Source: Dehalococcoidia bacterium
GTDB taxonomy: Bacteria > Chloroflexota > Dehalococcoidia > SZUA-161 > SpSt-899
Reading direction: 5' to 3'
DNA length: 60,642 bases
Assembly: GCA_028711995.1 (NCBI GenBank)
Contig: JAQTRE010000004.1
Span: forward strand, 1-60,642
The position numbers and the translations under genes were made by a program. Shown in pieces: positions 6,329 to 60,642 of the stretch (its first letter is position 1; each line of letters starts with the position of its first letter). Under the pieces are notes generated by a model, which did no database searches, was not told the DNA's origin, and worked only from the letters and a program-made list of their open reading frames with translations.

Positions 6329-6331
6329 ACG

Positions 6332-7386: not shown

Positions 7387-7390
7387 GAAT

Positions 7391-11484: not shown

Positions 11485-13947
11485 CTAATCGTGCGATTCA
11501 ACAATGATATACTTCAGCCAGGCAATCGGCATGGGAGCCGCCACAAAGTCCTTCACATAGGGTTTAACCAGGATATAGTTGACGTTGAAAAACATCGGCA
11601 AGCAGGCCGCATCCTCAACGATCATCCGCTCGATATCCTGGTACATCTTCAGGCGAGCATCAGTATCCATTTCTCCGCGTGCCGTTTGGAGCAATACATC
11701 CACTTCAGGGTTGCTGTACTCCCCTGCGTTATCCTCGCTCTGGCTATAGAACAACATATCCAGGAAATTCTGCGGATCGGGGTAGTCGGCAATCCAGCCC
11801 GAATCGAAAAGCTCGTCTTTGTCTTCCTTGAGAACATCGAAGTAATCGTCGGGATCGATCTGTCTGACAGCCACATCCACCCCCAGATTCTGCTTCCACA
11901 TATCGATGAGCGCCTGATTGATCGGCGAGATATCGCCGAGTCCGGCAGTGGTAAAGGTAATGGGAGGAAGATTCGAAACGCTCCCGTATGTTGACTCTCC
12001 GATCAGTTCCTTGGCTTTGGCGGGATCGAATTCCAGTCCTTTGAGTCCTTCGCTATAGCCGGGCATCCCCGGCGGCAAAATACCGTCGGCTCGTTTGGCC
12101 ATATCCTTAATCACCAGCTTGATGATTTTATCCTTATCCACCGCGTAACAAAACGCCTGACGCACCCTGGGGTCATCAAAGGGAGGCTTGGTCACATTGA
12201 AACCAATATACCACAGGCTGAACTCGGGGATAGTGATCAGTTCCTTGTTCAGCGCATTGGCCGGATCAAGAACTCGCTCGATATCTTGCGTAGACACATA
12301 GTTGATATCGATCTCCCCTGTTTCGTACATCATCATCGGGATTCCGGCATACAACCGAAAGACCACGTTTTTGACCTTGGGCATTTCCCCATAATAGCCG
12401 TCATTGCGTTCCAGAGTGATGATCTCGTCCACCTTCCATTCCTTCAGTTTGAAGGGGCCGGTGCCGTTGGGCTCGCGCCACCATTCCCCGCCCGACTCCA
12501 CATTGGCCTGATCCACCACAAAAGCTACCGGATGAGTGAGCTTGGCCAGAAAGTATGCCTTGGGCGCATCGATAGTGATTCGGAGGGTATATTTATCCAT
12601 AACCTTCACACCACTGATTTCCCTGGCTGTTCCGGCGAGTCTGTCATTGACACCGACAATGTCTCCGAGATAATTGGCCGCCGTCTTAGACCCTGTGGCG
12701 GGATTACAGGCACGCTCCAGTGAATACTTGAAATCATCGGCAGTCACTTTCTTTCCGTCCTGGAACTTCACGTCCTGCCGCAAATGAAAAGTGTATGTTT
12801 TGCCGTCATCGGAAACCTCCCACTTTTGAGCGATTTCCGGAACTACTTTCAGGCCCTTATCAAGCGTCACCAGCCCGGAGAACAGCTCCATCACGTACGA
12901 AGCAGAGGTGCTATCGCGCGAAAGCGCCGGGTCCATAGTCGTCGGCCCAATGTCTGTCAAGATCAGAGACTCATTCCGAGGGACGCCGGAGAGGCTCGGT
13001 TCCTCCAACCGCAAGCTGTAAAGGATTTCGTCAAAAGTATCCGCCTGAGAAGCGAAGTCAGATTCGGGGCTCAAAGCCAGAGCGGCAAAGGCCCGGCTGC
13101 CGCGCACCATGCTGATCACCTTCACTTTCAGCGGCAGGCCTGATTCGGCTCCGGTGAACACCTGTTCATAGCCGGATTCCGCATCCACCTTGACCTCTCC
13201 TTCAGATAGCAGGGCAAAGTCGCTCAGCCCCTGCTCAAGACCCTTAATGTTTTCGGCAGCAAATTCCTGAGGCGTCATTTTCGCAGACAAATACTGGACC
13301 CACACCTGCACCATGCCGGTCCTATCAGGAGAGAGAACGAGCAGTAAAGCACCGCCTTGCGGAGAATCCTGCTTCTCCCAATCTGTAGGATAACTCAGGG
13401 AAAAACCATAGGTGGCGTTTCTGTAGAAGCCAGCTTGGTCCACTTCAGTGAGTTGTGGTGTTGCTGCATCACTTGGCCCATTGGAAGGATTCGATTTCGA
13501 TACGTTGCTCCATACTGCAGCAACTATAGCCACAAGGATCACCACGCTAACCAAAGCCAAAATCAACTGTCGACCATGCCAACCTGAGGTGGCGCCGCGC
13601 GAGATCGAGGGTTTTTTAGATGGTTGGACGCGAGTATCTTTGGGTTTTTGCGGTGGTGGGTACGAAGTTTCATTCTGTGTTGTATTCTTCGATGAATATT
13701 CACCACCATAAGATGAACTACCGCGAGGCTTGCCAAAGACTCCCTTGACCCTATCATACTCAGCGCGCTTTTGCGGGTCACCGAGGACTTCATATGCCTC
13801 ATTGATTTCTTTCATCCGGGCTTCAGCGTTGGCGCTCTTATCGATGTCTGGGTGATACTTTTGCGCCAAGCGCTTATAAGCACTCTTAATAACCTCTGGA
13901 TCAGCTTCAGAGTCAACCTGAAGTATCTTATAATAGTCTCTTGCCAT
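11485..13947 (-). CDS. J-domain / single TM helix / PsbP-like module / family-5 solute-binding protein fusion
   Basis: 820 aa. N-terminal [24 protein letters not shown] domain, TM segment [19 protein letters not shown], then [14 protein letters not shown], then a peptide/nickel SBP_bac_5-type domain ([40 protein letters not shown]). Confidence 0.8.
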
Positions 13948-49352: not shown

Positions 49353-50495
49353 ATGCCAACACGAGAACGCAGAACATTACGATTTGCTTATGGATTCGAT
49401 GACATCGCCATAATTCCCGGTGATATCACCATTAATCCCGACCAGACGGATATCGGGTTCGACTTGGATAGTTTGCACTTTTCCGCTCCCGTCCTGGCCG
49501 CCGCCATGGATGGGGTGGTAGATCCGAAAATGGCCATCGCCTTCACCAAAATCGGAGGCCTCGCCGTGCTGAACCTGGAAGGGATTCAGACCCGGTATGA
49601 TGACCCTGACGCCATCCTGGAGCAAATTGCCGTAACCCCTCAATCGGAGGTCACCGCGCTGCTCCAGAAAGTCTATTCCGCACCGATCAAAAATAACCTC
49701 GTCGGTGAGCGGATACAGGAGATCAAGAAGGGAGGCGGAGTGGCCGCCGTCTCGGTAACTCCGGCCCTGACCAAGCAACTCTATGGAATCTGCGGCGAGG
49801 CAGGAATGGATGTGCTGGTGGTTCAATCCACAGTTACTACCACCCGGCATATTTCCAAGAGTACAAAGGGCCTTGTTTTCTCCGAACTGCGCAAATGGGT
49901 CTCGACACCGATTATTGTGGGGAATTGCGTCAGCTACAATGTAGCCAAGGGTTTGATGGAAACAGGTATCAGTGCTGTTTTGGTGGGCGTAGGACCCGGG
50001 GCAGCATGTACTACCAGAGAAGTATTGGGTGTCGGCGTGCCGCAGGTCACCGCGACGATGGACTGCGCCGCTGCCCGTGACGACTACTTCCGCGAAACAA
50101 AGCGATACGTCCCCATCATCACCGATGGCGGCATTAGAGCCGGAGGTGACCTCTGCAAGGCTTTCGCCTGCGGGGCGGATGCCGTGATGCTGGGCTCGAT
50201 CATGGTGCAGACGGCTGAAGCTCCGGGAAGAGGCAGCCACTGGGGGATGGCAACCCCTCATGGCGCACTGCCGAGAGGGACGCGGGTAAAGGTGCCCGTC
50301 AACAGCACTCTGCAAAAGACCTTGTTTGGGCCAGCCACCGTTACCAACGGAACCCAGAACCTGATCGGTGCGCTTCGTACTTGTATGGGAGTCTGCGGGG
50401 CCAAAAACATCAAAGAGATGCACAAGGCCGAGATCGTTATCGCCCCGGCAATCAAGACCGAGGGGAAGCAGCTCCAAAGACTCCAAGCTCAATAA
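49353..50495 (+). CDS. guaB3: GuaB3-type IMP dehydrogenase-related protein (no CBS insert)
   Basis: 380 aa. FAYGFDDIAIIPGD.., GVGPGAACTTREVLGVGVPQ, ITDGGIRAGGDLCKAFACGADAVMLGS. Confidence 0.85.
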   Translation: MPTRERRTLRFAYGFDDIAIIPGDITINPDQTDIGFDLDSLHFSAPVLAAAMDGVVDPKMAIAFTKIGGLAVLNLEGIQTRYDDPDAILEQIAVTPQSEVTALLQKVYSAPIKNNLVGERIQEIKKGGGVAAVSVTPALTKQLYGICGEAGMDVLVVQSTVTTTRHISKSTKGLVFSELRKWVSTPIIVGNCVSYNVAKGLMETGISAVLVGVGPGAACTTREVLGVGVPQVTATMDCAAARDDYFRETKRYVPIITDGGIRAGGDLCKAFACGADAVMLGSIMVQTAEAPGRGSHWGMATPHGALPRGTRVKVPVNSTLQKTLFGPATVTNGTQNLIGALRTCMGVCGAKNIKEMHKAEIVIAPAIKTEGKQLQRLQAQ

Positions 50496-50521
50496 CAGGG
50501 CGATTTCAAGAGCCTGAATTC

Positions 50522-50547
50522 AAAGGGCGACCGTAATGGTCGCCCTT
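50522..50547 (+). terminator. intrinsic terminator after guaB3
   Basis: aaagggcgacc-gtaa-tggtcgcccttt hairpin followed by a pyrimidine-rich tail. Confidence 0.6.
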
Positions 50548-50613
50548 TCCTGTTATAGACATCTCTCCCGCTGAGTGCTAAACTTTAGCCACCTCATGCA
50601 ACGGGGTGGTCAT

Positions 50614-51630
50614 ATGCGCGAGGCAATCCTCTATGAGAAGCTGCCCGGCTCCAGAGTCCGTTGCCACGTTTGCCAGTGGCGATGTCTCATCCAGCCGGAT
50701 CAATATGGCCTCTGCCGGATGCGTCACAATATCGACGGCATTCTTGAGGTCTTGAACTATGGTGAGGTTTCCTCCGTAGCCGTCGACCCGATAGAAAAGA
50801 AACCGCTGTTTCACTTCCATCCCACAAGCAAGGTCTTTTCCCTGGGAAGCTGGGGCTGTAATTTCCGCTGTAAACACTGCCAGAACTGGCAGATATCCCA
50901 TCAGACTCAGGATAAAGCAGACCGCGATTCACAGAATATCCCCCCCCAGGAAGCAATCCGGCTCACCAGGCAATATGGATGTAAAGGCATCGCCTGGACT
51001 TACAATGAGCCCTGCATCTGGCTGGAATATACACTGGATTCGGCAAAATTGGCCAAAAAGGAAAACCTCTATACCGCCTATGTGACCAATGGATTCTTCA
51101 CCGAAGAGGCTTTGGACACCATGGGGCCTTATCTTGATGCATGGAGGGTGGATATCAAAGGCTTCAGCGACGCTCTCTACCAAGGGCTGGCCAAGGTGGT
51201 CAACTGGCGCAAAATTCTGGAAACAACCCGGCGTGCTCAAGAGAAATGGAAGATGCATGTGGAAGTGGTCACCAACATTATCCCCACGCTGAATGATGAC
51301 GATGAGCAGCTTGAAGGGATCGCAAATTGGATCAGAGCCGAACTGGGAGAACTCACCCCCTGGCATGTGACGCGCTTCTATCCGCAATACCAGATGCTGG
51401 ATCTTCCCCCAACGCCGGTATCGACCATCGAGCGCGCTTATGAGATCGGCAAGAAAGCAGGCCTTCGGTTTGTCTATGTCGGCAACATACCGGGACACCA
51501 GGGCGAAAGTACCGTCTGCTACTCCTGCGGTAAACTGGTGGTGGAGCGAGTGGGTTACCACACCAGGATCACCGGTCTCGACGGTTCTTCCTGCCAATTC
51601 TGCGGCGCGGATCTCAATTTCAGGAGATAG
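50614..51630 (+). CDS. amrS: AmmeMemoRadiSam system radical SAM enzyme
   Basis: MREAILYEKL..VRCHVCQWRC..CRMR, radical SAM motif GCNFRCKHCQNW, C-terminal CYSCG..C.FCG. Confidence 0.88.
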   Translation: MREAILYEKLPGSRVRCHVCQWRCLIQPDQYGLCRMRHNIDGILEVLNYGEVSSVAVDPIEKKPLFHFHPTSKVFSLGSWGCNFRCKHCQNWQISHQTQDKADRDSQNIPPQEAIRLTRQYGCKGIAWTYNEPCIWLEYTLDSAKLAKKENLYTAYVTNGFFTEEALDTMGPYLDAWRVDIKGFSDALYQGLAKVVNWRKILETTRRAQEKWKMHVEVVTNIIPTLNDDDEQLEGIANWIRAELGELTPWHVTRFYPQYQMLDLPPTPVSTIERAYEIGKKAGLRFVYVGNIPGHQGESTVCYSCGKLVVERVGYHTRITGLDGSSCQFCGADLNFRR

Positions 51631-51641
51631 AGGAGGTTGCG

Positions 51642-52448
51642 ATGGAAAGGAATCCGATAGCAGCGGGTAAGTTCTATCCGGGCACATCCTCTGAACTCGA
51701 AGCTCAGATAGAGACTTTGATCGACAACAATGTGCCCAAAGAGGAAGTCATCGGCCTGGTTTCACCTCACGCCGGATACATCTATTCCGGACCCGTAGCC
51801 GGAGCCACCTTCTCGCGCATCCAATTCACAGACACGTTCGTTATCATGGGGCCCAATCATTACGGAAGGGGAGCACCCTTCAGCATCATGTCCGAGGGCC
51901 ATTGGAAAACTCCCCTGGGCAAGGTGAAGATCGATTCAGACCTGGGCTGTCGGATACTAAGGAACTCCAGCTATCTTGAGGAGGACATCGAGGCACATCG
52001 CTACGAGCACTCCATTGAGGTTCAGGTGCCGTTCCTGCAGTATTTCAAGAGAGACGTTCACATTGTGCCGATCGTGCTCGGCCTTGCCGAGGGGGCCATC
52101 TATAAGGATATCGGCAAAGGCATCGCGAAGGCGATCAAGGATTCCGGCAAGGGAGCGGTGATCGTGGCCAGCAGCGATATGACCCATTACGAGCCTCAGG
52201 CATCGGCCAAAAAAAAGGATGCCCGGGCCATTGAGGCCATCCTTGATTTGGACGAGGATGAGCTGCTCAAGAGAATCCAGGAACTCAATATAACCATGTG
52301 TGGGTATGCCCCGACGATTGCCCTCATCGCCGCTGCCAAGGAACTGGGAGCCACGAAAGCAACCCTTGTCAGGTACCAGACCAGTGGTGATGTTAGCCGC
52401 GACTATGAAAGCGTGGTAGGCTACGCAGGGATACTCATGAAGGGGTGA
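51642..52448 (+). CDS. amrB: AmmeMemoRadiSam system protein B (Memo-like)
   Basis: 268 aa. AGKFYPG.., VSPHAGYIYSG, EHSIEVQVPFLQ, SSDMTHY. Confidence 0.9.
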   Translation: MERNPIAAGKFYPGTSSELEAQIETLIDNNVPKEEVIGLVSPHAGYIYSGPVAGATFSRIQFTDTFVIMGPNHYGRGAPFSIMSEGHWKTPLGKVKIDSDLGCRILRNSSYLEEDIEAHRYEHSIEVQVPFLQYFKRDVHIVPIVLGLAEGAIYKDIGKGIAKAIKDSGKGAVIVASSDMTHYEPQASAKKKDARAIEAILDLDEDELLKRIQELNITMCGYAPTIALIAAAKELGATKATLVRYQTSGDVSRDYESVVGYAGILMKG

Positions 52449-52451
52449 ATA

Positions 52452-52997
52452 ATGAGCGTGAAGAAGTCGCATCCCCTGGTGGAACTGGCCAGGCAATCGG
52501 TAGAGATGTATGTCCGCGATGGAGAGATACCCCGGCCGAAAGCATTAACACCGGAGATGGAGGAAAAGGGGGGAACATTTATCTCGATCCACAAAAGCGG
52601 ACAGCTTCGCGGATGCATCGGCACCTTCCAGCCCACCCGACGCAATGTGGCCGAAGAGGTCATCTACAACGCCATCAACTCAGCCACCGGAGACTACCGA
52701 TTCAGTCCGGTAACCCCTGAAGAACTTCCCGAACTGACCTACAAGGTCGATATCCTCACCGCACCAGAGCTGGTCAAAAACAAGGATGAGCTCGATCCCA
52801 AGAAATATGGGGTCCTGGTGGAATACCAAGGCAGGCGGGGAATACTCCTCCCCGACCTCCCAGGGGTAGACAGCGTAGACCAGCAGATTGAGATCGCCAG
52901 CGCCAAGGGAGGCATCCTGCCCACTGAACCGGTCAGGATTTACCGCTTTCAGGTCCGCCGTTTTGAAGAGGGCAAGCCATATCCAGATGAAGATTAG
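52452..52997 (+). CDS. amrA: AmmeMemoRadiSam system protein A (AMMECR1 domain)
   Basis: 181 aa. GTFISIHKSGQLRGCIGTFQP, DYRFSPV, GILLPDLP. Confidence 0.9.
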   Translation: MSVKKSHPLVELARQSVEMYVRDGEIPRPKALTPEMEEKGGTFISIHKSGQLRGCIGTFQPTRRNVAEEVIYNAINSATGDYRFSPVTPEELPELTYKVDILTAPELVKNKDELDPKKYGVLVEYQGRRGILLPDLPGVDSVDQQIEIASAKGGILPTEPVRIYRFQVRRFEEGKPYPDED

Positions 52998-53187
52998 TAA
53001 GTCCTGATCAACTCCTGTCCCCCTCATCAGGGAAATCACCAGAGGGCACGACAAATCGTCAGGCCCCTATTGCCCCCAGTCAATCGACAACAGCCGCTGC
53101 AATCGCCACAGCAACGGTGAGAAAAGCGAAGGTGCCATGCCATTTGACCACGGATCGATCGATCCACCCACGGTGGATTGATACACC

Positions 53188-53244
53188 TCAGGCTGCGGTG
53201 AGGAAAGCCAGAACCGCAGTGGCAATGCTCAGAGACGTCTCCAT
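53188..53244 (-). CDS. candidate 18-aa hydrophobic micro-ORF
   Basis: AAGGAGG, 5 nt, ATG. METSLSIATAVLAFLTAA*. A related GTG-initiated ORF lies at 53080..53151 (VKWHGTFAFLTVAVAIAAAVVD*). Speculative. Confidence 0.25.
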   Translation of the reverse strand: METSLSIATAVLAFLTAA

Positions 53245-53273
53245 TATTGCCTCCTTATAGATAGAGGTCGATG

Positions 53274-53369
53274 TGGCGGGAGCGAGGGGAGTCGAACCAC
53301 CACGAGCATCGCGAGATACCCGCCAACGGTTTTGAAGACCGCGAGCACCACCGGGCACCATTCGCTCCC
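53274..53369 (-). tRNA. selC: tRNA-Sec (anticodon UCA)
   Basis: The minus strand reads GGGAGCGAAUGGUGCCCGGUGGUGCUCGCGGUCUUCAAAACCGUUGGCGGGUAUCUCGCGAUGCUCGUGGUGGUUCGACUCCCCUCGCUCCCGCCA (96 nt). 8-bp acceptor stem GGGAGCGA/UCGCUCCC, G73 plus an encoded CCA, anticodon loop CUUCAAA, long variable arm, GGUUCGACUCC T-loop. The layout parallels E. coli selC. The T-stem has one U:C mismatch. Confidence 0.85.
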
Positions 53370-53374
53370 TAGAT

Positions 53375-54598
53375 TCAAACATGAGCAATTTCCCGACGCC
53401 ACATTGGGCCCAGAAAGGATTTTGCTAACCGTTTGCTAACCGAGACCTGTTCAATGCTGTCTTTCAGGCTCTCTTCAAATCGCAAGGCCGCTGCCTCTTG
53501 AATGCCTTCGGTCACATGACTGTACCTGTCCAACGTGATGCTTATCGTGCTGTGACCTAGCCTTTCACTCACAATCTTGGGATGGACGCCTTCCCGTAAC
53601 ATCAACGACGCGTGTGTGTGGCGCAGGCTCTTCAAGCTCAACTCGGGCTGGCCGATGTTCCGGGCGATGGTCTTGAAGCAGCGGGTAATGGTATAAGGCT
53701 TGATATAACTTCCGTCCGGCCGGGCGAAAACCAAGTCATTCGGTCTGAGCGGCAATCCAAGCTCCCGGCGAATGTTCTCTTGCGCTGCCTTATGTTCGCG
53801 CAACAGAAGCGCCACAGACGATGAGAGACTGATCAGCCGTTTGCCCCGCTTTGACTTGGGTTCCCGCAGGATAAATTCACCGTTGCGCAGCCGGTGAAGG
53901 CTCTCGACGACCGATAGGTGACACAGGTCCAAGTCAACCCGAGACCATTTCAAGGCCAGAATTTCGGATCGCCGCATTCCGGTGAATAAGTCGAGGTAAA
54001 ATACCACGTAATAGGGCGATTTCTGGGCCGCCTGCAGGAACCGGGTCACATGATCATGCTCGACCGTCACCATTTCGCAATGCTTGGGCTGGGGCGGTGT
54101 GCAGGCTGAAGCCGGATTCCGGGCAAGAAGACCTTGACGAACCGCCGTTTCCAAGGCGACATGCAAGAGGTGATGGAAGTGCAGCACGGTCTGAGCACTT
54201 AGTCCGCCCTTACCATCAACCCGCCCGACCTTCAGGGCCTTAGTGTAATAGCTTTGGATACGGGCCGGCTTCAAATCGGACAGAGGAATTCTCCCAAATT
54301 CGGGCACCAGGTGCAGCCGGATGATCTCCGCGTAGCGATCGGCCACTTGGGGAGATAGATTCACACTATAGTCTTGAATCCATTGCGTCAGAAACTGGCC
54401 CGTTGTCAGCTTTGAAGGCGAGACATAGGCACCGGTGTCCATCTCGTGAAGAACATCGGCGAGTTTTGCCTCCGCTTGCTTGCGGGTTCCTTGAACCGTG
54501 AGCCATTGCTGCTTGCGCTTCCCGGTTTCATCCTTACCCTGGTTGATGACCAGGCTCCAGGATCCTTTGCTGCGTTTGACCAGGTGTCCGCGTGCCAT
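53375..54598 (-). CDS. int: tyrosine-type site-specific integrase
   Basis: 407 aa. N-terminal arm-binding-like GHLVKRSKGSWSLVINQGKDETGKRKQQW, SAM-like core-binding domain, catalytic RRSEILAL...LRHTHASLML..GVHPKIVSERLGHSTISITLDRYSH (R..HxxR..Y). The stop is 5 nt from the tRNA-Sec 5' end. Confidence 0.93.
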   Translation of the reverse strand: MARGHLVKRSKGSWSLVINQGKDETGKRKQQWLTVQGTRKQAEAKLADVLHEMDTGAYVSPSKLTTGQFLTQWIQDYSVNLSPQVADRYAEIIRLHLVPEFGRIPLSDLKPARIQSYYTKALKVGRVDGKGGLSAQTVLHFHHLLHVALETAVRQGLLARNPASACTPPQPKHCEMVTVEHDHVTRFLQAAQKSPYYVVFYLDLFTGMRRSEILALKWSRVDLDLCHLSVVESLHRLRNGEFILREPKSKRGKRLISLSSSVALLLREHKAAQENIRRELGLPLRPNDLVFARPDGSYIKPYTITRCFKTIARNIGQPELSLKSLRHTHASLMLREGVHPKIVSERLGHSTISITLDRYSHVTEGIQEAAALRFEESLKDSIEQVSVSKRLAKSFLGPMWRREIAHV

Positions 54599-54634
54599 GA
54601 TACTCCCATTATATCCAATTTGCGGCCTTTGGTG

Positions 54635-55294
54635 TTACTTTGTCTTCTTCTTTCTTTTTGGAACCGGCAACGGTCCCCGCATTTCACATGGTTCAGATGT
54701 TTCTATCACGGTCCCCGCAAAGCTAACAAATAGCTTATCGTCCGGCTGGAGCTGTTTATAAGCCGACAGAAAAGCCTTCTGGTTCTGTTCGCTTTGCCAT
54801 GGCGCGTACCTCACGGCCATACTGACATAAGGCTCATGTCCACCGACACGCAATTCAGCCAAGGCTTTGGCATTTTCGAACGGAATCTCTGGGCAACGGC
54901 TCGCAATCTCAATCAGCTCAGCAGCCACCTTCTGACGAGTAGCATTGCCATTTGCCTCCGTTATGTCAACAAAGGCCAGCACCCACCCCGCTATCTCTGG
55001 GGATACCCCCTTTTTGATCAAACTCTGCACCGTCCAAGTAGATCCCGTTCCAGGCTTCCCGCCGGTTTTGGGCAGTTCCGGGGCCTTGGCTTCGTGGGTT
55101 AGCTGGACTGCGGTTTGTTTCAGTGTGATGGTGCCTTCACGCACCCCTCTTTCCCAGAGATAGAGTGTTTTTTCATGACGCGGTGCATTCTCGCCGAATT
55201 CCTCCTCTAGTATTTCAAGAACGTCCGAACGTTTCTTCGTTTTACGAAGCTCTAATGCCCTCTTGACGATATCTTCATTGCGAACCCGTGTCAT
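54635..55294 (-). CDS. hypothetical protein, occupies the repressor position next to int
   Basis: 219 aa. No motif recognised beyond a helical N-terminus and a basic tail PKRKKKTK. Co-directional with int and divergent from xis. Confidence 0.5.
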   Translation of the reverse strand: MTRVRNEDIVKRALELRKTKKRSDVLEILEEEFGENAPRHEKTLYLWERGVREGTITLKQTAVQLTHEAKAPELPKTGGKPGTGSTWTVQSLIKKGVSPEIAGWVLAFVDITEANGNATRQKVAAELIEIASRCPEIPFENAKALAELRVGGHEPYVSMAVRYAPWQSEQNQKAFLSAYKQLQPDDKLFVSFAGTVIETSEPCEMRGPLPVPKRKKKTK

Positions 55295-55386
55295 GATAAC
55301 CCCTATCCTAATACATACTTATCTACTTGCCATATAAATTACTATGTAATGCAATCATAATTATCTAAATGCCGTTTACGAATTCT

Positions 55387-55415
55387 ATATTATTGTTTTA
55401 GACTGGAACTGTCAA
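55387..55415 (-). promoter_or_regulatory. near-consensus leftward promoter in the AT-rich switch region
   Basis: The minus strand reads TTGACA (55415-55410), 17 nt, TAATAT (55392-55387). A weaker rightward TTGCCA-17-TGCAAT lies at 55327-55355, so the two would fire face to face. Confidence 0.4.
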
Positions 55416-55446
55416 GACTTAGCAATACCTGAGGGAGGTTCATAAC

Positions 55447-55629
55447 ATGGATAAAGTTCTGTTAACTCTGGAGGAAACGAGACAGCAGTATATCCCAGTG
55501 GGCAGAAATCGTATCTATGAGCTGGCAGCCGAAGGCAAACTACCCATCATTCGCTTCGGAAGGAAAATTTTTGTCAACCGTATCGCCTTGGAAAAAATGC
55601 TTGCAGAGGCTGCAAGTTCTGTTCAGTAA
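55447..55629 (+). CDS. xis: excisionase/AlpA-like helix-turn-helix protein
   Basis: 60 aa. LLTLEETRQQYIPVGRNRIYELAAEGKLPIIRFGRKIFVNRIALEKML is an HTH_17/MerR-like excisionase pattern. gagggagg SD. Confidence 0.8.
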   Translation: MDKVLLTLEETRQQYIPVGRNRIYELAAEGKLPIIRFGRKIFVNRIALEKMLAEAASSVQ

Positions 55630-55663
55630 CCCGAGGGGAGAGCTTGGATAGGAGGTGTTGTGA

Positions 55664-58393
55664 ATGTATGTAGATACACTCCCCAGGGAACTCTTGCCTC
55701 TTCCGAACTGGGTTGCATGGCGATTCGATCCCCCGCCTGAAGTAGGTGGAAAGCCCCGTAAAGTTCCCATCAACCCGAACACGGGTATGCCGGCCAGCAC
55801 CATCGATCCGGCTACCTGGAGCACCTTCGCTGGGGCCAACGAGAGAGCCGAACAGGACAGACTGAACGGCGTTGGATTCGTGTTCACCAACAGTGGCTTC
55901 ACCGGCATTGATTTGGACCATTGCGTCAGTGACGGAATCATCGAACCGTGGGTTGAACGGATCATCCAAGACTTCAACAGCTATGCAGAACTTTCCCAAT
56001 CTAGCACTGGCGTTCACATTATCGTCCAAGGGAAGTTACCTCCAGGTGCGCGCCGGAAGGGCAATATCGAGGCTTATGATTCAGGACGTTACTTTGTGAT
56101 CACCGGCGAACATCTTGAAGGGACACCGGTCACAATTGAGCCCCGTCAACCGGAACTGGCGGCTTTCCATGCCAAGCATTTGGGGAGTAACGGCCATGGG
56201 GAGGTTACTCCGGCCGCCGCCACAGTCACCATCACGATGGATGACCAAGAAATTGTTCGGCGAATGCTATCCAGCTCCAGTGGGGCCAAGATCAAGGCAC
56301 TCATGGATGGCGACACCGCCGCCTATGGCGGCGATGACTCTGCGGCAGATATGGCTTTGTGCGCGCACCTCGCCTTCTGGTGTCAAAAAGACCCCGGACA
56401 AATGGATAGGCTGTTCAGAAGTTCAGGGCTCATGCGGGCCAAGTGGGATGAAAAGCGCGGGGCTGCGACTTACGGCCAACTCACTATTGCCAGGGCCGTT
56501 GAGGGATGCCGCCAAATCTACACTCCAGGTAACCATTCTTCCAACGCCAAAGAGACGTCGGAGATCAAGAATATACCACAACCATCCCGGGCCAAAAATC
56601 CGTGGGAATATGAAATTGCTGGGGGCGAGCTTTGTCTCGTAAGAAAGGCAAGAGATGGTGGAGAGTATTTGCAACCGCTATGTTCCTTTGACCCTAAGAT
56701 CGAAGAGGAAATCATGCGTGATGACGGACTCAACACCGTTCGAGAGTATATTATCTCGGCCACCATGGACGGTGCCAATCTGCCCGCGGGTCGTGTATCC
56801 GAGGCAGACCTACAATCCGGGGCTTGGCCAAGGAAGCTGTGGGGCGCCCAAGCCAATGTCTATCCGGGGTCAACGACATCACAGCATATCCGGAGCTATC
56901 TTCAGTCTGGGCGACGGGGCACAACGGCCAAACCCATCTTCACCCATACCGGGTGGCGCCAAATAGGAAAACGGAATGTGTTTCTTTCAGCCTCTGGTGC
57001 CACCGGTCTCGAAGGCATTCAAGTCGAGCTGTCAGACCGATTAGCGCGCTACAGTTTGCCAACAGACTTCACTCGAATTTCAGCATGCGAGAGCATGAAA
57101 ACCAGCCTGAAGTTCATCGAGCCCGGCTTTGGACAGCCCGGCGTAATGGTCCCGTTATGGGCAGCAATGTATGGATGTCCCCTTATGGAATTCATGGAAC
57201 CCTCGTTCACGCTCTTCCTATGCGGCCAGTCGGGTGCCCTGAAATCAACGCTTGAAGCTCTTGCGTTGAACCACTTCGGCGAGTTCACCTATTTGAACCT
57301 ACCGTCTTCTTGGGAGGACACGGCGAATCGCCTGCAATACAATTGCTTTGTCCTCAAGGATCTTCCTCTAGTTATCGACGACTGGGCACCGGCGGCAACC
57401 GTAGCGGCTCAGCGAGAACAGGAGCAGAAAATGGCCGCGATCCTCCGTTCCCAGGGCAACCGTCAGGGCCGCGGTCGGCTGGCAGCGGACGCCAGCCCAA
57501 AGGACACCTATGTTCCACGCGGGTTGGTGATCACGTCGGGAGAGCAACTTCCCCGGGGCGAGTCCAATGCAGCACGCACGTTCACGCTTGGCCTCCAGCG
57601 CGGTCAGGTGAATATGGAGATGTTGACAGAAGCACAACAGACTGCACACATGTACCGTTACGCCATGGCCCAATATGTAGTGTGGATAACATCCCATTGG
57701 GAGTATCTGGCCAAGTATGTGCCTGATCTCTTCTTTCAGGTGCGCGATAGCGCGCAAAAGGCTGGCCTGCACCTGCGCTTACCTGGGACTCTCGGCTGGC
57801 TATATGCATCGCTCGATGTAGCCCTGAGTTTCGCCCAGGAAGCTGGAGTGCTATCGGACAGCCAAAAGTCAGAAGTGCTCAATGCCAACTGGGAAATGCT
57901 GTTCCAGTTGGCTCAAGAGCAGGGCGAGCGAGTGAACTCGAGGCGTGCCGGGGTGGTATTCCTTGGAGCCCTGCAGGCACTGTTGAGTCAAAGCAAGCTG
58001 GTCCTGATCTCCAAGAAGTTCGCTGACCTTACAGAGATTTGTGGCGCTTTGGGAGAACCAGAGCCCCGAACATTGAAAGCCCATGAAACGTTTGTGGGTT
58101 GGGAAGATGCCGAGTACCTGTATTTGATCCCTGCCGTTACCTATGAACGTGTCTATTCGTTCTTGATGGCAGCGGGCCAGGCCATCACATCAAATCCGGA
58201 CTCGGTGTGGTCAGACCTTCATGCCGGCGGTTACTCGGAATGTAATCCAGGTCGCGATACATTCGTTGCCAAAGTGGGCACGGGAGAAAAAGCCATCTCG
58301 AAGCGAGTCATCAAACTGAAGAAGAAGGTACTCGCAGACATGGAGGGGGCATGCCCCGATCAAACTGAGGGGGCCATATCCGAAAATTGGTAA
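55664..58393 (+). CDS. bifunctional primase-polymerase / helix-bundle domain / DUF927-like SF3-type helicase fusion
   Basis: 909 aa. N-terminus LPNWVAWRF..GKPRKVPINP..GFTGIDLDHC..STGVHIIVQG..IEAYDSGRYFVITG (prim-pol DxD and H motifs). DSAADMALCAHLAFWCQKDPGQMDRLFRSSGLMRAKWDEKRG..TYGQLTIARAV. C-terminal HTGWRQIG.., P-loop-like LCGQSGALKST, Walker B LPLVIDDW. Confidence 0.85.
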   Translation: MYVDTLPRELLPLPNWVAWRFDPPPEVGGKPRKVPINPNTGMPASTIDPATWSTFAGANERAEQDRLNGVGFVFTNSGFTGIDLDHCVSDGIIEPWVERIIQDFNSYAELSQSSTGVHIIVQGKLPPGARRKGNIEAYDSGRYFVITGEHLEGTPVTIEPRQPELAAFHAKHLGSNGHGEVTPAAATVTITMDDQEIVRRMLSSSSGAKIKALMDGDTAAYGGDDSAADMALCAHLAFWCQKDPGQMDRLFRSSGLMRAKWDEKRGAATYGQLTIARAVEGCRQIYTPGNHSSNAKETSEIKNIPQPSRAKNPWEYEIAGGELCLVRKARDGGEYLQPLCSFDPKIEEEIMRDDGLNTVREYIISATMDGANLPAGRVSEADLQSGAWPRKLWGAQANVYPGSTTSQHIRSYLQSGRRGTTAKPIFTHTGWRQIGKRNVFLSASGATGLEGIQVELSDRLARYSLPTDFTRISACESMKTSLKFIEPGFGQPGVMVPLWAAMYGCPLMEFMEPSFTLFLCGQSGALKSTLEALALNHFGEFTYLNLPSSWEDTANRLQYNCFVLKDLPLVIDDWAPAATVAAQREQEQKMAAILRSQGNRQGRGRLAADASPKDTYVPRGLVITSGEQLPRGESNAARTFTLGLQRGQVNMEMLTEAQQTAHMYRYAMAQYVVWITSHWEYLAKYVPDLFFQVRDSAQKAGLHLRLPGTLGWLYASLDVALSFAQEAGVLSDSQKSEVLNANWEMLFQLAQEQGERVNSRRAGVVFLGALQALLSQSKLVLISKKFADLTEICGALGEPEPRTLKAHETFVGWEDAEYLYLIPAVTYERVYSFLMAAGQAITSNPDSVWSDLHAGGYSECNPGRDTFVAKVGTGEKAISKRVIKLKKKVLADMEGACPDQTEGAISENW

Positions 58394-58636
58394 CGTGGTA
58401 ACCCAGCCATGATCTGGAAGCTGTGAATGACTCATCTACATTCAACTCTTGGTTACCAGGAGTTACCGCAAAAGTAATGTGTCGAATTCAAATGGTTACC
58501 AAAAGTTACCAGAAGTCAGAACGGTTCTCTTGGTTACCAGACCCGGTAACCATTCAGATTCAAGTTACCAACCGGTTACCAGCAAAATTTGAAGCTATCG
58601 TGAATCCAGATGCGACTACTGGTTACCAGGTTACCA
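58388..58636. repeat. iteron-like array of 12 (G)GTTACC / GGTAAC(C) heptamers, candidate replication origin
   Basis: Copies at 58389, 58397, 58451, 58462, 58494, 58505, 58532, 58545, 58564, 58574, 58621 and 58629. They are mostly in pairs 8-13 bp apart, starting at the primase stop codon. Confidence 0.85.
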
Positions 58637-58977
58637 AAAATAATATATACCCTTGAGTTTTGTGCATCGAGATAGCCCAGCAGGGATACTGAGTTTTGGA
58701 GCATCAATATCATGGATAGTTCGATAGGGGAACACAGACGAGATGGCAATGAAGGTGCAGCAGTTGTAGGGGTGAACAGTCGCGTTTTGGTCGCCCCACT
58801 AATATATCTCGTATCGAGTGTCCCGTTTTGGGACAAGGTCCCAAGGTTCCCGAAAGGACGATCATAGTCGAGCTATCCAGGCGAAGTATAGGATTTCGAT
58901 GGCAGTGAGTCATAGAGTGTGAAGCCGAAGGGATTATACACGGTCTCTTCTGATACAACGAAAAAAGGAGGGGGACA

Positions 58978-59436
58978 ATGAGAAAACTCGGCAAGTTCAA
59001 TGAGTCCAAGGCCAAAACCTTGTTGGTGGTAAAGGAGAACGAGACAAGCAATCTGCGCCGGTATCCGTGGGGTGATAAGAAGGTCAATGTCCTGACTATC
59101 GATGATGTTCATGAGTTATCCGGCGTGAGCATTCAGACACTCAGAAAGTTGATGCCTCGGTGGCACAACTGGGGGCTATTGGCACGAATTCCCGTCGCAG
59201 CCACGCAGCAGCCGCGGGGACGGGTGAAAACCTGCCGGTGTTTCAGAGAGCGCCCCGTGTGGGGCTATTTTTCTACTAAGAAGGGCTCCTCATGGTTGGA
59301 ATTCTACGCCAGGGACTATTTGGATGTTCGTCGGTTTGAAGCTGAGATCAAGGATTGGCGCGACTTGGAAACCGAGCGACTGAAGGCTGCATTGCTTCCG
59401 GCAAATCCCGGAAACGACTCCAACCGGAAGGCCTAG
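58978..59436 (+). CDS. hypothetical protein with HTH-like segment
   Basis: 152 aa. aaaggaggggg SD. LTIDDVHELSGVSIQTLRKLM resembles a helix-turn-helix. No family recognised. Confidence 0.55.
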   Translation: MRKLGKFNESKAKTLLVVKENETSNLRRYPWGDKKVNVLTIDDVHELSGVSIQTLRKLMPRWHNWGLLARIPVAATQQPRGRVKTCRCFRERPVWGYFSTKKGSSWLEFYARDYLDVRRFEAEIKDWRDLETERLKAALLPANPGNDSNRKA

Positions 59437-59643
59437 ACATCGGACTTCACGTGTCTCGACGATCGTGGCGGCGCTCACCTTTGATGTACGTGAAGTGATC
59501 CGGAGCTTGCGGATGAGTTCATAGCGTCTATCCGCTGTTCACCAAATAAAGGGGTCTCCAGAAGGGCATATCTCTCGAATCTGAAAAAACCACCAGAACC
59601 CGCACCCAACAAGGTAGTGATTCTTTGCTGATAGAGGTAGATT

Positions 59644-59931
59644 ATGGAATTCGATCAAAAACTCCTGGAGCCCGGATGGGCTGGCGATCTGTCGCCAGAA
59701 GAACTGGCATTCATCAAAGGCAAGCTGAAGTCCGACCGGCGATTAAGGGCAAGGTGGGGCATGCCAAGGGGCACTGGTAAAGTGAACGATGAGAAAATCC
59801 GCTTGGTGGCAATCGGTGGAACCAATAGCCCTGAATTATCATCTCACAAACCAGTGGAAGGCGTTTTCCACGCACGACGAAATTTAGAACAACCGTCGCC
59901 CTGTACGATTCATCAACTCGCTCTTGTTTAA
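59644..59931 (+). CDS. hypothetical protein
   Basis: 95-aa ORF with a gataga-ggtag purine-rich stretch upstream. No recognisable motif. Confidence 0.35.
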   Translation: MEFDQKLLEPGWAGDLSPEELAFIKGKLKSDRRLRARWGMPRGTGKVNDEKIRLVAIGGTNSPELSSHKPVEGVFHARRNLEQPSPCTIHQLALV

Positions 59932-60642
59932 GCCGAAGAACACACCATTGTTATTCGCCATGTACTGGCTATCGCCACCACCATATCCATCATTTCCACC
60001 ATCACCGTGGTGATCACTGCCATCATCACCCTCATCCACAATTTCCCTCTTTGGCGTGGGAAAAAGCCGCCGAAGTTACCGAAACTGCTACGGCGATCAT
60101 GTACGTATCAGCGGCAATGGGAACAGGGGAACTACCGCTCGCGTCAAGGAGAGGTTCCCAAACGACGCAATTTTGAGAAACCCGGGGATATCTGCTGAGC
60201 GAAAACCTTGTGTACGGCAATGGTCAGAAGCAATGGCACGACCGTGGGTTTTATCATTAGTGTGAAGTGTCGGCTTCAGTGCATGTCCTCTGGGCTTTCA
60301 GACAATCATACAGAAGTAGTTTGCGCTCCATTCAGGGACCGCAATCCCCCGTAGCTACCACAGCGTTTTGGTAAAAATGGATGTCTCACACGGACTTCCT
60401 TCCCCTCTGTCAGTTCTGCTGAGATCACCCTTCCACATGTAGCGTGGTAATGGTACGAATCTCCCGTTTTGACTGCTAGGACCTTGGGGGGTATAATGAT
60501 TGCAGCCTATACTAGGGAACCTCTGATCAAGTCCGTCGAAAAATAAATTCAGCGGAATTCCCTCAATAAAATAACGTCGAAGTGTGGGTTTTCCGTGGTT
60601 CCGCTCTCTGAATAACCCCTTTTCAGGGGAAATCCTGTCTGC

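Follow-up and report, generated by a model that had tools for sequence, protein, structure and literature searches.

A probable integrative element with a SaPI-like replication module beside the tRNA-Sec gene of an uncultured Dehalococcoidia bacterium

The window analysed here is an entire contig of 60,642 nucleotides from an uncultured Dehalococcoidia bacterium in a landfill metagenome. Its left flank is chromosomal (ClpC, RadA, an IMPDH-like protein and an AmmeMemoRadiSam trio), with 66 to 74% identity to Dehalococcoidia MAGs, and it is followed by an element that leaves the contig at the right end after more than 7.27 kb. The order is tRNA-Sec, int and orf219 (minus strand), an AT-rich region, an HTH gene and pri-rep (plus strand), iterons, a winged-helix gene and a 95-aa ORF. 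Every feature listed in the initial annotation is present at its coordinates. The parts recognised in the present analysis are:

53275-53370, minus strand: intact tRNA-Sec gene (ARAGORN; Rfam RF01852 at 63.5 bits, over all 91 model positions)
53331-53379: candidate att identity block, running from 9 nt upstream of the tRNA-Sec 5' end into the anticodon loop
53375-54598, minus strand: tyrosine integrase, 407 aa (PF00589, PF14659; phrog_1, E 7e-65)
54635-55294, minus strand: orf219, 219 aa, co-directional with int; no family match
55295-55446: AT-rich divergent region, 152 bp (67.8% AT versus 46.9% for the whole window)
55447-55629, plus strand: HTH_17/excisionase-family gene, 60 aa, Xis- or AlpA-like (HTH_17, E 1.4e-7; PHROG excisionase families)
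55664-58393, plus strand: fused primase-initiator helicase (Pri-Rep), 909 aa (PDB sequence, profile and Foldseek matches)
58389-58660: putative replication origin with 12 GTTACC iterons, 9 forward and 3 reverse
58978-59436, plus strand: winged-helix DNA-binding protein of MarR-like fold, 152 aa (AF2 model and Foldseek)
59644-59931, plus strand: 95-aa ORF, function not recognised; no family match
59856-59888: assembly-graph branch point, with a second continuation after 59888
60511-60642: high-copy repeat (100-400x depth versus 6.5x beside it), with at least 4 different left flanks

The integrase keeps R210, K248, R326, H349 and Y359, and it has more than 5500 relatives at 50 to 59% identity; those with a source name bear the label Dehalococcoidia or subsurface metagenome. 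Of 84 loci from this integrase family, 63 have a tRNA gene beside the integrase. Here the tRNA-Sec gene (anticodon TCA at 53333-53335) points its 5' end towards the integrase stop codon across a gap of 4 nt, and we infer that the right edge of the att block, 53379, is the left boundary of the element. Evidence on junctions, as on depth, comes from the assembled contigs of the sample. Sample X1 offers an alternative rightward continuation for the sequence up to 53379, a 225-nt contig at 6.8x (TTCTAACCTTTCC...), and in a 193-nt sample contig unrelated DNA is fused to a stretch that matches 53331-53369 except at one position. The sister locus L176, in which a 49-nt repeat of a tRNA-Ser 5' half (positions -5 to 43) brackets a 7.8-kb element, proves a 5'-side geometry for the same-strand type; the tRNA-Sec junctions in the sample contigs correspond to this geometry. 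Taken together, these contigs and the related loci point to the 5' half of the tRNA gene as the integration site. There is no second copy of the tRNA block in 53000-60642 and no occurrence of a candidate distal junction 30-mer in the window; because the right end of the element lies outside the window, the second att copy would lie there too.

Between the two oppositely oriented gene pairs, the divergent region contains a leftward promoter-like sequence, TTGACA-17-TAATAT, at 55415-55387. The initial annotation had described orf219 as occupying the position of a repressor, a suggestion that its product does little to bear out, having neither a detectable DNA-binding domain nor relatives: there was no family match in Pfam, PHROGs, NCBIfam or PADLOC, there were zero relatives among 5.8 billion proteins, and no profile similarity was found to the same-position ORFs of sister elements. 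Those ORFs are 256-372 aa long, and in three of seven a DNA-binding domain can be recognised, an HTH in two and a zinc finger in one (HTH_38/HTH_23 or zf-CGNR). The 60-aa HTH protein scores 25 bits against the excisionase domain TIGR01764, under the 28.8-bit cut-off; its gene is preceded by the ribosome-binding site GAGGGAGG, and tblastn found relatives in 24 of the 84 loci.

Pri-Rep combines two parts. Residues 1-290 form an NrS-1-type prim-pol (DxD at 83-85, H118), with matches to the NrS-1 helix-bundle domain (Pfam) and to PHROG "DNA primase" families over residues 1-300; the PDB sequence matches are NrS-1 prim-pol and PriRep5, the N-terminus matching 7OLA at E 6e-34, an entry that is the primase part of SaPI5 PriRep5 (PMC9371898). 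Residues from about 310 to 909 form an MCM-like ATPase of the SaPIbov1-Rep/Cch type with a C-terminal helical/winged part, including a Walker A motif (GQSGALKST, 521-529) and a Walker B motif (VIDD, 570-573), of which G521, G524, K527 and D572 are invariant among 20 homologues. A profile match to SaPIbov1 Rep (8TCH, E 7e-6) agrees with the confident AF2 model (pLDDT 84), for which Foldseek returned NrS-1 (7e-21), 8TCH (5e-16, TM 0.65 over about 600 columns) and Cch (5DGK, 1e-15), so that the C-terminal 600 residues have the fold of both SaPIbov1 Rep and SCCmec Cch.

The first two iterons overlap the rep stop codon. GTTACC/GGTAAC occurs 12 times in 58389-58635, compared with 28 times in the whole window, in a regular array of six pairs spaced 8-12 nt apart beside an AT-rich stretch at 58636-58650. 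The 7-mer GGTTACC occurs 16 times in the window versus 3.2 expected, a count reached in none of 100 shuffles. Three distant Rep relatives have their own, different iterons directly 3' of rep: 13 of 14 copies of GGTATCAC in L002, 11 of 16 copies of TGGAAAC in L010, and three copies of GTAGCCGAA in L006. In L002, opposed iteron sets flank AT-rich DNA, the same arrangement as in the SaPI origin design (PMC9371898).

The replication module is SaPI-like in fold and layout. The order of int, divergent xis, pri-rep and iteron origin that had been likened to the SaPI replication-integration layout is upheld, and the Rep folds agree too (PMC9371898). No structural, terminase or lysis family matched the element ORFs in the visible 7.3 kb (PHROGs), as had been noted from the sequence alone. 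Both observations speak for a PICI-type phage satellite, of which the window would hold the integration-regulation-replication half. Past the contig end, such a satellite would have only hijack genes for packaging or capsid redirection (analogues of terS, cpm or ppi) besides its defence cargo, and its induction, replication and packaging would come at the cost of a Dehalococcoidia helper phage. Phage-like elements in public viral contigs that have head and packaging genes, and integrases 48-49% identical to this one, would be possible helpers, and defence genes, which many satellites have, occur in the sister elements as well. We nevertheless consider a satellite unlikely. The visible 7.3 kb show neither a packaging gene nor one for capsid hijacking; the satellite label has as its visible basis only int, the AlpA-like HTH gene and pri-rep, three of the five PICI core functions and a combination that SatelliteFinder calls "Type C" and deliberately leaves out as ambiguous (PMC10085698). 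The same Rep fold serves SCCmec, yet SCCmec is not a satellite, and no packaging gene was found among the genes tested in complete sister elements of 5.3-8.4 kb. To our knowledge, no helper has been described.

What do the sister elements indicate about the part that lies beyond the contig? Their template is int, a co-directional ORF, a small opposite-strand ORF (recognisably xis-like in L190 and L170) and a large replication protein that differs by sister (D5-like, prim-pol or AAA_25). Two kinds of complete element use related integrases. The first are replicons of 5-8.5 kb with defence cargo; direct repeats of tRNA halves bound the complete sisters L176, L195, L207 and L165 (5.3-8.4 kb). Since complete sisters carry GmrSD, Shedu/TIR/R-M or HD-CE genes, cargo beyond the visible part is plausible. 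The second are predicted proviruses of 14-23 kb in which genes for head and packaging lie near the integrase, and these bear on the possible, though somewhat doubtful, reading that the window ends within the left arm, the one for lysogeny and replication, of a small temperate phage or of a phage-like element that forms capsids and measures roughly 15-40 kb. Its genes for terminase, portal, head and perhaps tail would then come on the plus strand past the contig end. L249-L252 are the four IMG/VR loci whose integrases come closest (48-49% identity); L252 has TerS, TerL, portal and major head genes from about 750 bp off int, and L249-L251 have ORFs 4-8 kb from int that match these by size and order rather than by individual annotation. 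Relatives of the Rep C-terminal domain are encoded on 74 IMG/VR contigs, many of them predicted proviruses of 20-57 kb that repeat the order of int and rep, with a left-end integrase 3-6 kb before rep, and N-terminal prim-pols are common in temperate Firmicutes phages (e.g., phi105 and PSA). At more than 7.27 kb, moreover, the element already approaches the largest sisters of the cargo type in length. The earlier preference for a satellite over a prophage is undercut by these proviruses and head-encoding elements. However, a phage arm would be unusual in having no recognisable lytic-lysogenic repressor/cro pair and in passing directly from xis to rep, the usual early genes being absent between them. 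No cultured phage or plasmid record has at least 80% cover of Pri-Rep, and no structural module was found within 10 kb of the closest full-length Rep relatives (L002, L005, L006-9 and L010).

The closest of these relatives, L002 (35% identity), lies in a tRNA-Arg-adjacent element that has iterons after rep and encodes a 464-aa FtsK/SpoIIIE protein, another finding at odds with the satellite label. It would fit an actinomycete AICE-type integrative conjugative plasmid, with int, xis, a prim-pol Rep and, past the window, an FtsK/SpoIIIE-like translocase for transfer of double-stranded DNA. AICEs such as pMEA300 have prim-pol Rep proteins. The AICE reading we regard as very improbable: FtsK/Tra, Spd, Nudix and GntR-type genes were not found in the visible 7.3 kb, nor were any of these among the genes checked in sisters of the same integrase family, and the FtsK-like ATPase of L002 could equally be a packaging ATPase.

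Near the contig end, the sequence after 59888 has an alternative continuation (CTAAAGTTAAACACG...) at 8.5x, compared with 6.5x for the window's own. Two variants or contexts that have 53350-59888 in common, or a misjoin, are possible, and the last 750 bp of the window may not be contiguous with the element in all cells. The contig ends at 60642 because of the high-copy repeat, which had no Rfam match and of which neither the rest of the window nor any of 248 fetched loci contained a further copy. The 700 bp preceding it contain no convincing gene. A repeat abutting the element could mean that we are looking at a decaying remnant, interrupted at 60511 and no longer able to excise, and integrase fragments are indeed common in sister loci. 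In the alignment, K323-S324 replace the H-D of 19 of 19 relatives, and with lysine at the first catalytic His position the integrase may, to judge from its sequence, be impaired. Type IB topoisomerases have lysine at the equivalent catalytic position, however, so this substitution does not necessarily abolish activity. Every long ORF is intact and has a good ribosome-binding site, Rep has kept its catalytic motifs, the iteron array is regular, and the contig depth of the element (10x) is, if anything, above that of the flanks (5.7-8x), although the excess is within the noise of contig depths. Decay seems to us improbable.

The integrative element next to tRNA-Sec is real, and it probably replicates itself. 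We think it likely that it is an integrated, excisable mobile element that uses a SaPI-type module for its own replication and belongs to a large tRNA-targeting tyrosine-integrase family of Dehalococcoidia. As to how it moves, we tentatively favour a compact replicon with few cargo genes, dependent on a helper or on vesicles; this is only a plurality reading, because closely related integrases also serve head and packaging elements. A conjugative (AICE-like) element and a decaying remnant jointly account for what is left beside the satellite and the phage arm.

Gene content, protein folds, iteron enrichment and a rep-iteron cassette conserved in relatives are observed features; we infer att geometry, excision, origin firing and regulatory roles. 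The integrase would recombine an att site that covers the tRNA-Sec 5' half between the anticodon loop and a point 9 nt upstream of the gene; with att in the 5' half, the element would therefore lie on the 5' side of a rebuilt tRNA, the native promoter and partial 5' half having moved to the distal end outside the window. The AT-rich divergent region would drive leftward transcription of int and orf219 and rightward transcription of xis and rep, with the HTH_17 protein as a putative excision directionality factor, activator or both. After excision, Pri-Rep would bind the GTTACC iterons beginning at its own stop codon, melt the adjacent AT-rich DNA and load itself as a hexameric 3'-5' helicase; the N-terminal prim-pol would prime synthesis, and the circle would be copied by a host polymerase. 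The winged-helix protein and the small downstream ORF are candidate regulators of the element. The former, encoded behind a strong AAGGAGG ribosome-binding site, has an AF2 model (pLDDT 86) with consistent but weak Foldseek matches to MarR/wHTH proteins (E about 5e-3), and its family is rare (11 representatives among 1.8 billion). The 95-aa ORF had no family match in Pfam, PHROGs, NCBIfam or PADLOC, and over residues 3-40 it shares 45% identity with an ORF within the sister locus L200.

The right end of the contig carries a real, discrete-looking integrative element whose SaPI-type Pri-Rep/iteron replicon is well supported, a kind of replicon not previously described in this phylum. The gene-by-gene account in the initial annotation (integrase, repressor-position ORF, divergent excisionase-type gene, primase-helicase, iteron array) was borne out feature by feature.

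Features of the element and the adjoining tRNA gene
53275-53370, minus strand, intact tRNA-Sec (ARAGORN; Rfam RF01852, 63.5 bits, full length)
53375-54598, minus strand, tyrosine integrase, 407 aa (PF00589 and PF14659; phrog_1, E 7e-65)
54635-55294, minus strand, orf219, 219 aa, upstream of int on the same strand
55295-55446, AT-rich intergenic region, 152 bp (67.8% AT versus 46.9% in the window)
55447-55629, plus strand, HTH_17/excisionase-type gene, 60 aa
55664-58393, plus strand, Pri-Rep ORF (Rep), 909 aa
58389-58635, GTTACC iterons, 12 copies
58978-59436, plus strand, orf152, 152 aa, with a strong ribosome-binding site
59644-59931, plus strand, orf95, 95 aa

The integrase stop codon lies 4 bases from the 5' end of tRNA-Sec, and a leftward TTGACA-17-TAATAT site falls inside the AT-rich intergenic region. 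The left flank is ordinary chromosome, with ClpC, RadA, an IMPDH-like gene and a radical-SAM/Memo/AMMECR1 trio, the radical-SAM protein being 66-74% identical to proteins of Dehalococcoidia metagenome-assembled genomes (MAGs). Sample data were assembled contigs from three runs. The sole run containing the locus is a landfill metagenome, which covers 99% of it. An exact-protein look-up of Rep returned a single 6.5-kb Logan contig (from SRR22315508) corresponding to 53350-59885, and an exact look-up of the AMMECR1 neighbor gave no match. Contig depth was 10x over the element versus 5.7-8x in the flanks, a difference too noisy to serve as a sign of extrachromosomal copies.

Sequence searches of the PDB found residues 16-290 of Rep to be homologous to the prim-pol of phage NrS-1 (E 6e-42) and residues 6-292 to 7OLA (E 6e-34), which is PriRep5, the fused primase-helicase of SaPI5 (PMC9371898). 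By sequence, the C-terminal part gave only a subthreshold match to DUF927 (E 0.003); a profile built from 20 Rep homologues matched 8TCH, the Rep of SaPIbov1 (E 7e-6). An AlphaFold2 model made on the homologue alignment was confident (mean pLDDT, 83.9). In Foldseek comparisons its N terminus matched NrS-1 N300 (E 7e-21), and its approximately 600 C-terminal columns matched SaPIbov1 Rep 8TCH (E 5e-16; TM [target] of 0.65 over 608 columns), with weaker matches to PriRep5, PriRep1 and poxvirus D5/E5. The expected motifs are in place: an AEP-type DxD at 83-85 with H118, a Walker A motif, GQSGALKST, at 521-529 (G521, G524 and K527 invariant in the 20 homologues), and a Walker B motif, VIDD (D572 likewise invariant). 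By homology and predicted fold, Rep is a Pri-Rep fusion of a PriRep5/NrS-1-type primase with a SaPIbov1/Cch-type MCM-like initiator helicase, and its predicted structure has the AAA+/MCM-like self-loading helicase fold characteristic of SaPI-type replicons. The closest full-length relatives are approximately 35% identical, and among cultured phage and plasmid records none covers 80% of the protein.

Rep resembles the SaPI module (8TCH, 7OLA and the SaPI ori) in pairing a self-loading initiator helicase with a primase fusion as in SaPI5, although sequence identity to 8TCH is only approximately 13%, and the helicase is of the MCM-like SaPIbov1/Cch type, whereas that of PriRep5 is SF3. The N-terminal 290 residues, including the helix bundle PF22763, are homologous to the NrS-1 prim-pol (6A9W and 7RR3), but the matched PDB entries hold the N-terminal 300 residues only, and Rep is encoded by an integrated element rather than by a phage genome. 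The same helicase fold is found in SCCmec Cch (5DGK, E 1e-15), whose carrier is an integrative, nonphage element; unlike Rep, Cch has no fused NrS-1-type prim-pol. SCCmec elements use serine recombinases (Ccr) and integrate in rlmH (orfX).

Of the 28 GTTACC hexamers across the 60.6 kb, 12 lie in 58389-58635, and the 7-mer GGTTACC occurs 16 times in the window against 3.2 expected, a count that 0 of 100 shuffles reached. The iterons start within the last rep codons and form six pairs 8-12 nt apart, with two reverse copies at the left end of the array and AT-rich stretches at 58470-58500 and 58636-58650. This is the SaPI-type arrangement of 6-12 short iterons directly past rep with an AT-rich segment. 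SaPI origins hold 6-12 penta- or hexanucleotide iterons directly downstream of rep, with an AT-rich center, and the repeats differ between SaPIs at a conserved place, each set beside a diverged Rep (PMC9371898). The Rep relatives show the same pattern. In the locus L002, 13 of 14 copies of GGTATCAC fall within 450 bp past the rep stop codon, with reverse copies clustered to the left and forward triplets to the right of an AT-rich stretch, the halves not being clean; at the same place, a 290-bp stretch of L010 contains 11 of the 16 TGGAAAC copies in that locus, and L006 has GTAGCCGAA three times. Because distinct repeats occupy a conserved spot beside diverged Reps, as they do in SaPIs, we take 58389-58660 as the putative origin. 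The comparative evidence for this assignment is good, and we infer that the C terminus of Rep would bind and read the array. Compared with the SaPI ori, the window iterons run mostly in one direction and do not form two opposed halves.

SaPI-type replication, with a self-loading Rep and iterons at the rep stop codon, has been studied almost solely in staphylococci. Finding the same fold and rep-origin cassette in Chloroflexota implies that the design is ancient or widely exchanged, a point strengthened by the NrS-1-type prim-pol fusion and by the three distant iteron-bearing relatives. Together these loci provide four natural Rep-iteron pairs for studies of specificity.

Related elements in other genomes, which the initial annotation had proposed to seek by a shared int and pri-rep, were found by way of both the integrase and Rep. 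More than 5500 proteins are related to the integrase at 50-59% identity, those with a named source being labeled Dehalococcoidia or subsurface metagenome. We examined 84 integrase-family loci, and in 63 of them a tRNA gene lies no more than 600 nt from the int stop codon. For 42 of the 63, tRNA and int are on opposite strands, the classical layout, with duplication of the 3' part of the tRNA. The other 21 have the tRNA on the same strand, with int abutting the 5' end of the tRNA as in the window; these tRNAs are nearly all Ser or Leu, which share a long variable arm with Sec. Eight same-strand loci have a codirectional ORF upstream of int, L179, L190 and L199 each encode a large replication protein on the opposite strand, and L170 and L190 have a recognizable xis-like ORF. 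The window element fits this template (an A3-family integrase, an adjoining tRNA, a codirectional ORF and opposite-strand genes), that of a Dehalococcoidia tRNA-integrase element family, a grouping defined within this analysis.

One feature of the integrase itself departs from the family. Residues K323-S324 (window 53630-53635) replace the H-D found in 19 of 19 aligned relatives, at the first histidine of the catalytic signature, while R210, K248, R326, H349 and Y359 are retained. Type IB topoisomerases have a lysine at the equivalent catalytic position, so the integrase may still be active despite K323. The substitution leaves room for a decaying element.

Several complete sister elements have defined ends. 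Direct repeats derived from tRNA genes mark them: repeats of 74 nt (100% identical) bound an element of approximately 7.0 kb in L195 (128-7079), 42-nt repeats one of approximately 5.3 kb in L207 (307-5605), and 47-nt repeats one of approximately 8.4 kb in L165 (4648-12983). The 7.8-kb element of L176 is bounded by 49-nt repeats of 96% identity, the duplicated att segment lying at 496-544 and 8349-8397 and corresponding to tRNA-Ser positions -5 to 43, the 5' half. L176 shows that the same-strand type inserts in the 5' half of the tRNA. There, the int-side copy of the tRNA gets a new 5' half from the element, which carries its own TAGAAT -10 box, and the native 5' half and promoter are left at the far end. 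To our knowledge, targeting of the 5' half is unusual among tRNA-site integrases.

Contigs from the landfill run point to the same geometry in the window. The sequence is common up to 53379, 9 nt upstream of tRNA-Sec, where a second continuation begins on a 225-nt contig (6.8x) that we read, from its sequence, as an apparent TGGACT-17-TAGAAT, 8 nt upstream of the start of the tRNA. On another contig, of 193 nt, unrelated DNA (...GATGGACGATCCAAAGGCAA) is fused to 53331-53369 with one mismatch; this segment covers precisely the stretch between the anticodon loop and the 5' end of the tRNA, and the contig lacks the other strand of the anticodon stem, unlike the other tRNA-Sec variants in the sample. 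The two contigs would be the two sides of a distal att copy, and from them and one sister locus, L176, we infer an att site at 53331-53379. A coexisting strain with an empty site would give partly the same contig signals. Under the att model, the predicted distal junction would read ...GATGGACGATCCAAAGGCAA / TTTGAAGAC...CCC TAGATTCAA / TTCTAACCTTTCC; the empty site would read host-left, whole tRNA-Sec, TAGATTCAA and then TTCTAACC...; and the excised circle would read ...CCAAAGGCAA, tRNA 5' half, TAGATTCAA and then ACATGAGCAATTTCC. The candidate distal-junction 30-mer is absent from the window, and the right end therefore lies beyond 60642.

An att covering the whole 106-bp tRNA block, or a tRNA carried as element cargo, was also considered, because tRNA-Sec follows AMMECR1 in none of the 45 scanned loci of related Dehalococcoidia with the IMPDH-like/AmmeMemoRadiSam cluster (L084-L163); the position of tRNA-Sec is thus not conserved at the level of 70% identity. 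A search by synteny gave no empty site, the closest genomes being only approximately 70% identical and having no tRNA at this place. We set both ideas aside and preferred the 49-bp 5'-half model because of the L176 repeats and the partial-tRNA contig. A separate candidate att core, the 28-nt repeat D5 (53245-53272 and 59615-59642, 71% identity), was dismissed as chance, since it is exact over 9 nt, for which approximately 100 pairs are expected in 7.6 kb.

If the 5'-half model is right, tRNA-Sec expression in element-bearing cells would depend on transcription from the integrase gene. A scan of 53371-53450 found no sigma-70-like promoter on the element side of tRNA-Sec. Integration in the 5' half, if confirmed, would be an unusual att geometry and could couple tRNA expression to the element.

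The readable part of the element ends in a repeat. The window is the entire contig, and its final approximately 130 bp (60511-60642) lie inside a high-copy repeat with a depth of 100-400x (6.5x in the adjoining sequence), which has four or more different left flanks in the sample. The contig breaks at 60642 because of this repeat, and the element therefore continues past the readable sequence. Rfam found no RNA family other than tRNA-Sec in 50000-60642, so the repeat contains no recognizable intron, rRNA or small RNA. No further copies were found in the rest of the window or in the 248 fetched loci; the repeat could be an insertion sequence, a miniature element or something else. Exact-pattern scans of genome and metagenome collections gave no extension past the right end, and BLAST of the loose-end 30-mers and the terminal repeat against the 248 loci gave no match. 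Just upstream of the repeat, at 60469-60497, is a near-consensus promoter, TTGACT-17-TATAAT (11 of 12 matches). This truncation limits the value of the locus, and the satellite question cannot be answered from this contig alone.

The sister elements show that int/ORF/xis/rep is a chassis on which elements of different kinds are built. Its replication proteins vary: D5_N/DUF5906/Pox_D5 in L190, Prim-Pol in L179, AAA_25 in L199 and L233, and a rolling-circle Rep (REP_ORF2-G2P) in L195 and L207. Of the complete sisters of 5-8.5 kb, three bear from one to a few defense-type genes, namely GmrSD (L207), a 1149-aa HD-CE/HATPase protein (L195), and Shedu SduA_C with SEFIR/TIR and a methyltransferase-restriction pair (L165), and the fourth, L176, has a MEDS/PAS protein with a response regulator; no packaging genes were found among the larger genes scanned in them. 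That the window element is likewise a compact replicon with cargo is the leading reading, plausible if short of probable. A PADLOC scan of its visible ORFs returned no defense families.

Other relatives are phage-like. In IMG/VR, the closest integrases (48-49% identity) belong to four loci, L249-L252, which come from predicted proviruses of 14-23 kb. In L252 (1-9250; integrase, 48%), TerS, TerL, portal and major head genes begin approximately 750 bp from int; in L249-L251 (48-49%, contigs of 19-23 kb), ORFs that match these in size and order, recognized on that basis, lie at a distance of 4-8 kb from int; and in L191 a TerL-like gene (1172-2548) lies approximately 1 kb from int. Each of these loci may be a small phage or a capsid-forming satellite, and possibly a helper. 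Sequences related to the Rep C-terminal domain were found in 74 IMG/VR contigs, of which many are 20-57 kb long with an integrase 3-6 kb to the left. The closest full-length Rep relatives occupy small elements: L002 (GCA_026645575.1; Rep, 35%) lies beside tRNA-Arg and encodes an FtsK/SpoIIIE-family ATPase, an HNH endonuclease and an SH3_3 protein (features at 6094-7488 and 12848-13300), L005 is at tRNA-Lys, L006-L009 carry McrBC and Abi genes, and L010 has a serine recombinase. In the window, the initial annotation's report of no structural, terminase or lysis genes held up against PHROGs, with no head, tail, terminase or lysis family match in any visible ORF; no terminase, portal, capsid, tail or lysis gene appears in the visible 7.3 kb, which is a truncated part. 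A phage-like or capsid-forming element is a possibility we regard as doubtful.

Dehalococcoidia are important for bioremediation and subsurface carbon cycling, and gene flow among them is poorly understood. The integrase family, with its more than 5500 proteins, links compact defense-cargo replicons, regulator cargo and phage-like elements, making it a candidate for the main vehicle of gene exchange in the class.

The initial annotation had classed the element as a PICI-like satellite. SatelliteFinder defines a PICI by five core components and accepts elements with five or four of them, whereas three-component elements (e.g., int, AlpA and primase/replicase) are "Type C" and are left out because they could represent mobile elements of another kind (de Sousa et al. 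2023, PMC10085698). In that study, Proteobacteria and Firmicutes account for more than 99.9% of PICIs, and Chloroflexi receive no mention. The window element resembles PICIs in having a site-specific integrase at one end, adjoining tRNA-Sec, an AlpA/excisionase-like HTH gene and a primase-replicase with its own putative origin, in conserved order and with no visible tail or holin gene. Unlike accepted PICIs, it has three of the five core components visible, which corresponds to Type C, and no packaging or capsid-hijack gene was found in the visible part, 53375-60642 (PHROG "head and packaging," Pfam). It also shares with SaPIs the nearby int, the divergent transcription, the 6-12 short iterons directly past rep and the AT-rich DNA, and differs from them in its Chloroflexota host and in the lack of a Stl-type repressor, terS, ppi or cpm in the visible part. 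The SaPI-like replication module of the original claim therefore stands, yet with three components and no visible packaging gene, PICI membership is not shown. The satellite reading is one of several live options, and a classical PICI-type satellite is unlikely.

Prochlorococcus tycheposons are small tRNA-targeting tyrosine-recombinase elements with interchangeable primase/helicase modules, occurring in cargo forms and in PICI-like forms (with terS or a capsid gene) on a common integration-replication chassis (Hackl et al., bioRxiv 10.1101/2020.12.28.424599). The mixture of cargo and phage-like forms among the sister elements is similar, but the host phylum differs and the sisters carry mostly defense or regulator genes, not nutrient-acquisition genes. 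Within the same class, the ssrA islands of Dehalococcoides use a CcrB-like serine recombinase (DsiB) at the 3' end of ssrA and are reported to have no genes for independent replication (McMurdie et al. 2011, PMC3146451). Like the window element, they occupy a specific site at a gene for a small RNA, and their integrase gene overlaps att; the window element has neither a DsiB-type serine recombinase nor the ssrA 3' end as its site, and instead has a tyrosine integrase, the tRNA 5' half under the att model, and a full Pri-Rep with a putative origin.

Actinomycete integrative and conjugative elements (AICEs; SLP1, pSAM2 and pMEA300) also have int, xis and rep, sit at tRNA genes and replicate once excised. 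One AICE-like trait, the FtsK/SpoIIIE gene, occurs in the element of the closest Rep relative (L002), not in the window, and no transfer, spread or Kor genes, FtsK/SpoIIIE-type Tra, or type IV secretion system and relaxase were found in the visible part. Conjugative and remnant readings jointly take what probability the other readings leave.

A broader joint reading, which we consider improbable as a whole, is that the window element belongs to an undescribed family of small phage-dependent Dehalococcoidia elements, combining 5'-half tRNA insertion, promoter replacement, selenoprotein coupling and packaging by coresidents. Minimal satellites or "hitchers" may target class II tRNA genes (Ser, Leu and Sec); insertion would swap the tRNA promoter and 5' half for element DNA; and a SaPI-type replicon would amplify the excised circle, which would be packaged by coresident phage-like elements with related integrases. 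If this were true, tRNA-Sec expression, and hence selenoproteins, would depend on transcription from the integrase region.

As candidate master regulators, the element has the 60-aa HTH_17/excisionase-like gene, for which no Pfam Phage_AlpA match was reported, and the repressor-position orf219, which is without domain or relatives: it matched nothing in Pfam, PHROGs, NCBIfam or PADLOC, lenient thresholds included, and had no relatives among 5.8 billion proteins. Sister elements have proteins of 256-372 aa at this position; among the five that were scanned, an N-terminal HTH is present in two and a CGNR zinc finger in one, and orf219 shows no profile similarity to the proteins at this position. 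The orf152 family is rare (11 representatives among 1.8 billion proteins), and the orf152 model (pLDDT, 86) gave consistent but weak fold matches to MarR-type winged-helix regulators; orf152 was negative as a terminase small subunit by every test applied.

The assembly graph of the sample splits after 59888 (59856-59888), the alternative path (CTAAAGTTAAACACGATC...) having a depth of 8.5x and the window's path 6.5x. This branch means that either the element exists in two variants or the window may be misjoined there. An attR at this point was rejected, since the predicted attB and attP junctions differ from the alternative flanks seen; there is no tRNA-like repeat at 59888, and exact 30-mer scans for the alternative right flank found none in genome_contigs or metagenome_contigs. 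In the alternative path, the stop codon of orf95 would come two codons later. Over residues 3-40, orf95 shares 45% identity with an ORF of a sister locus.
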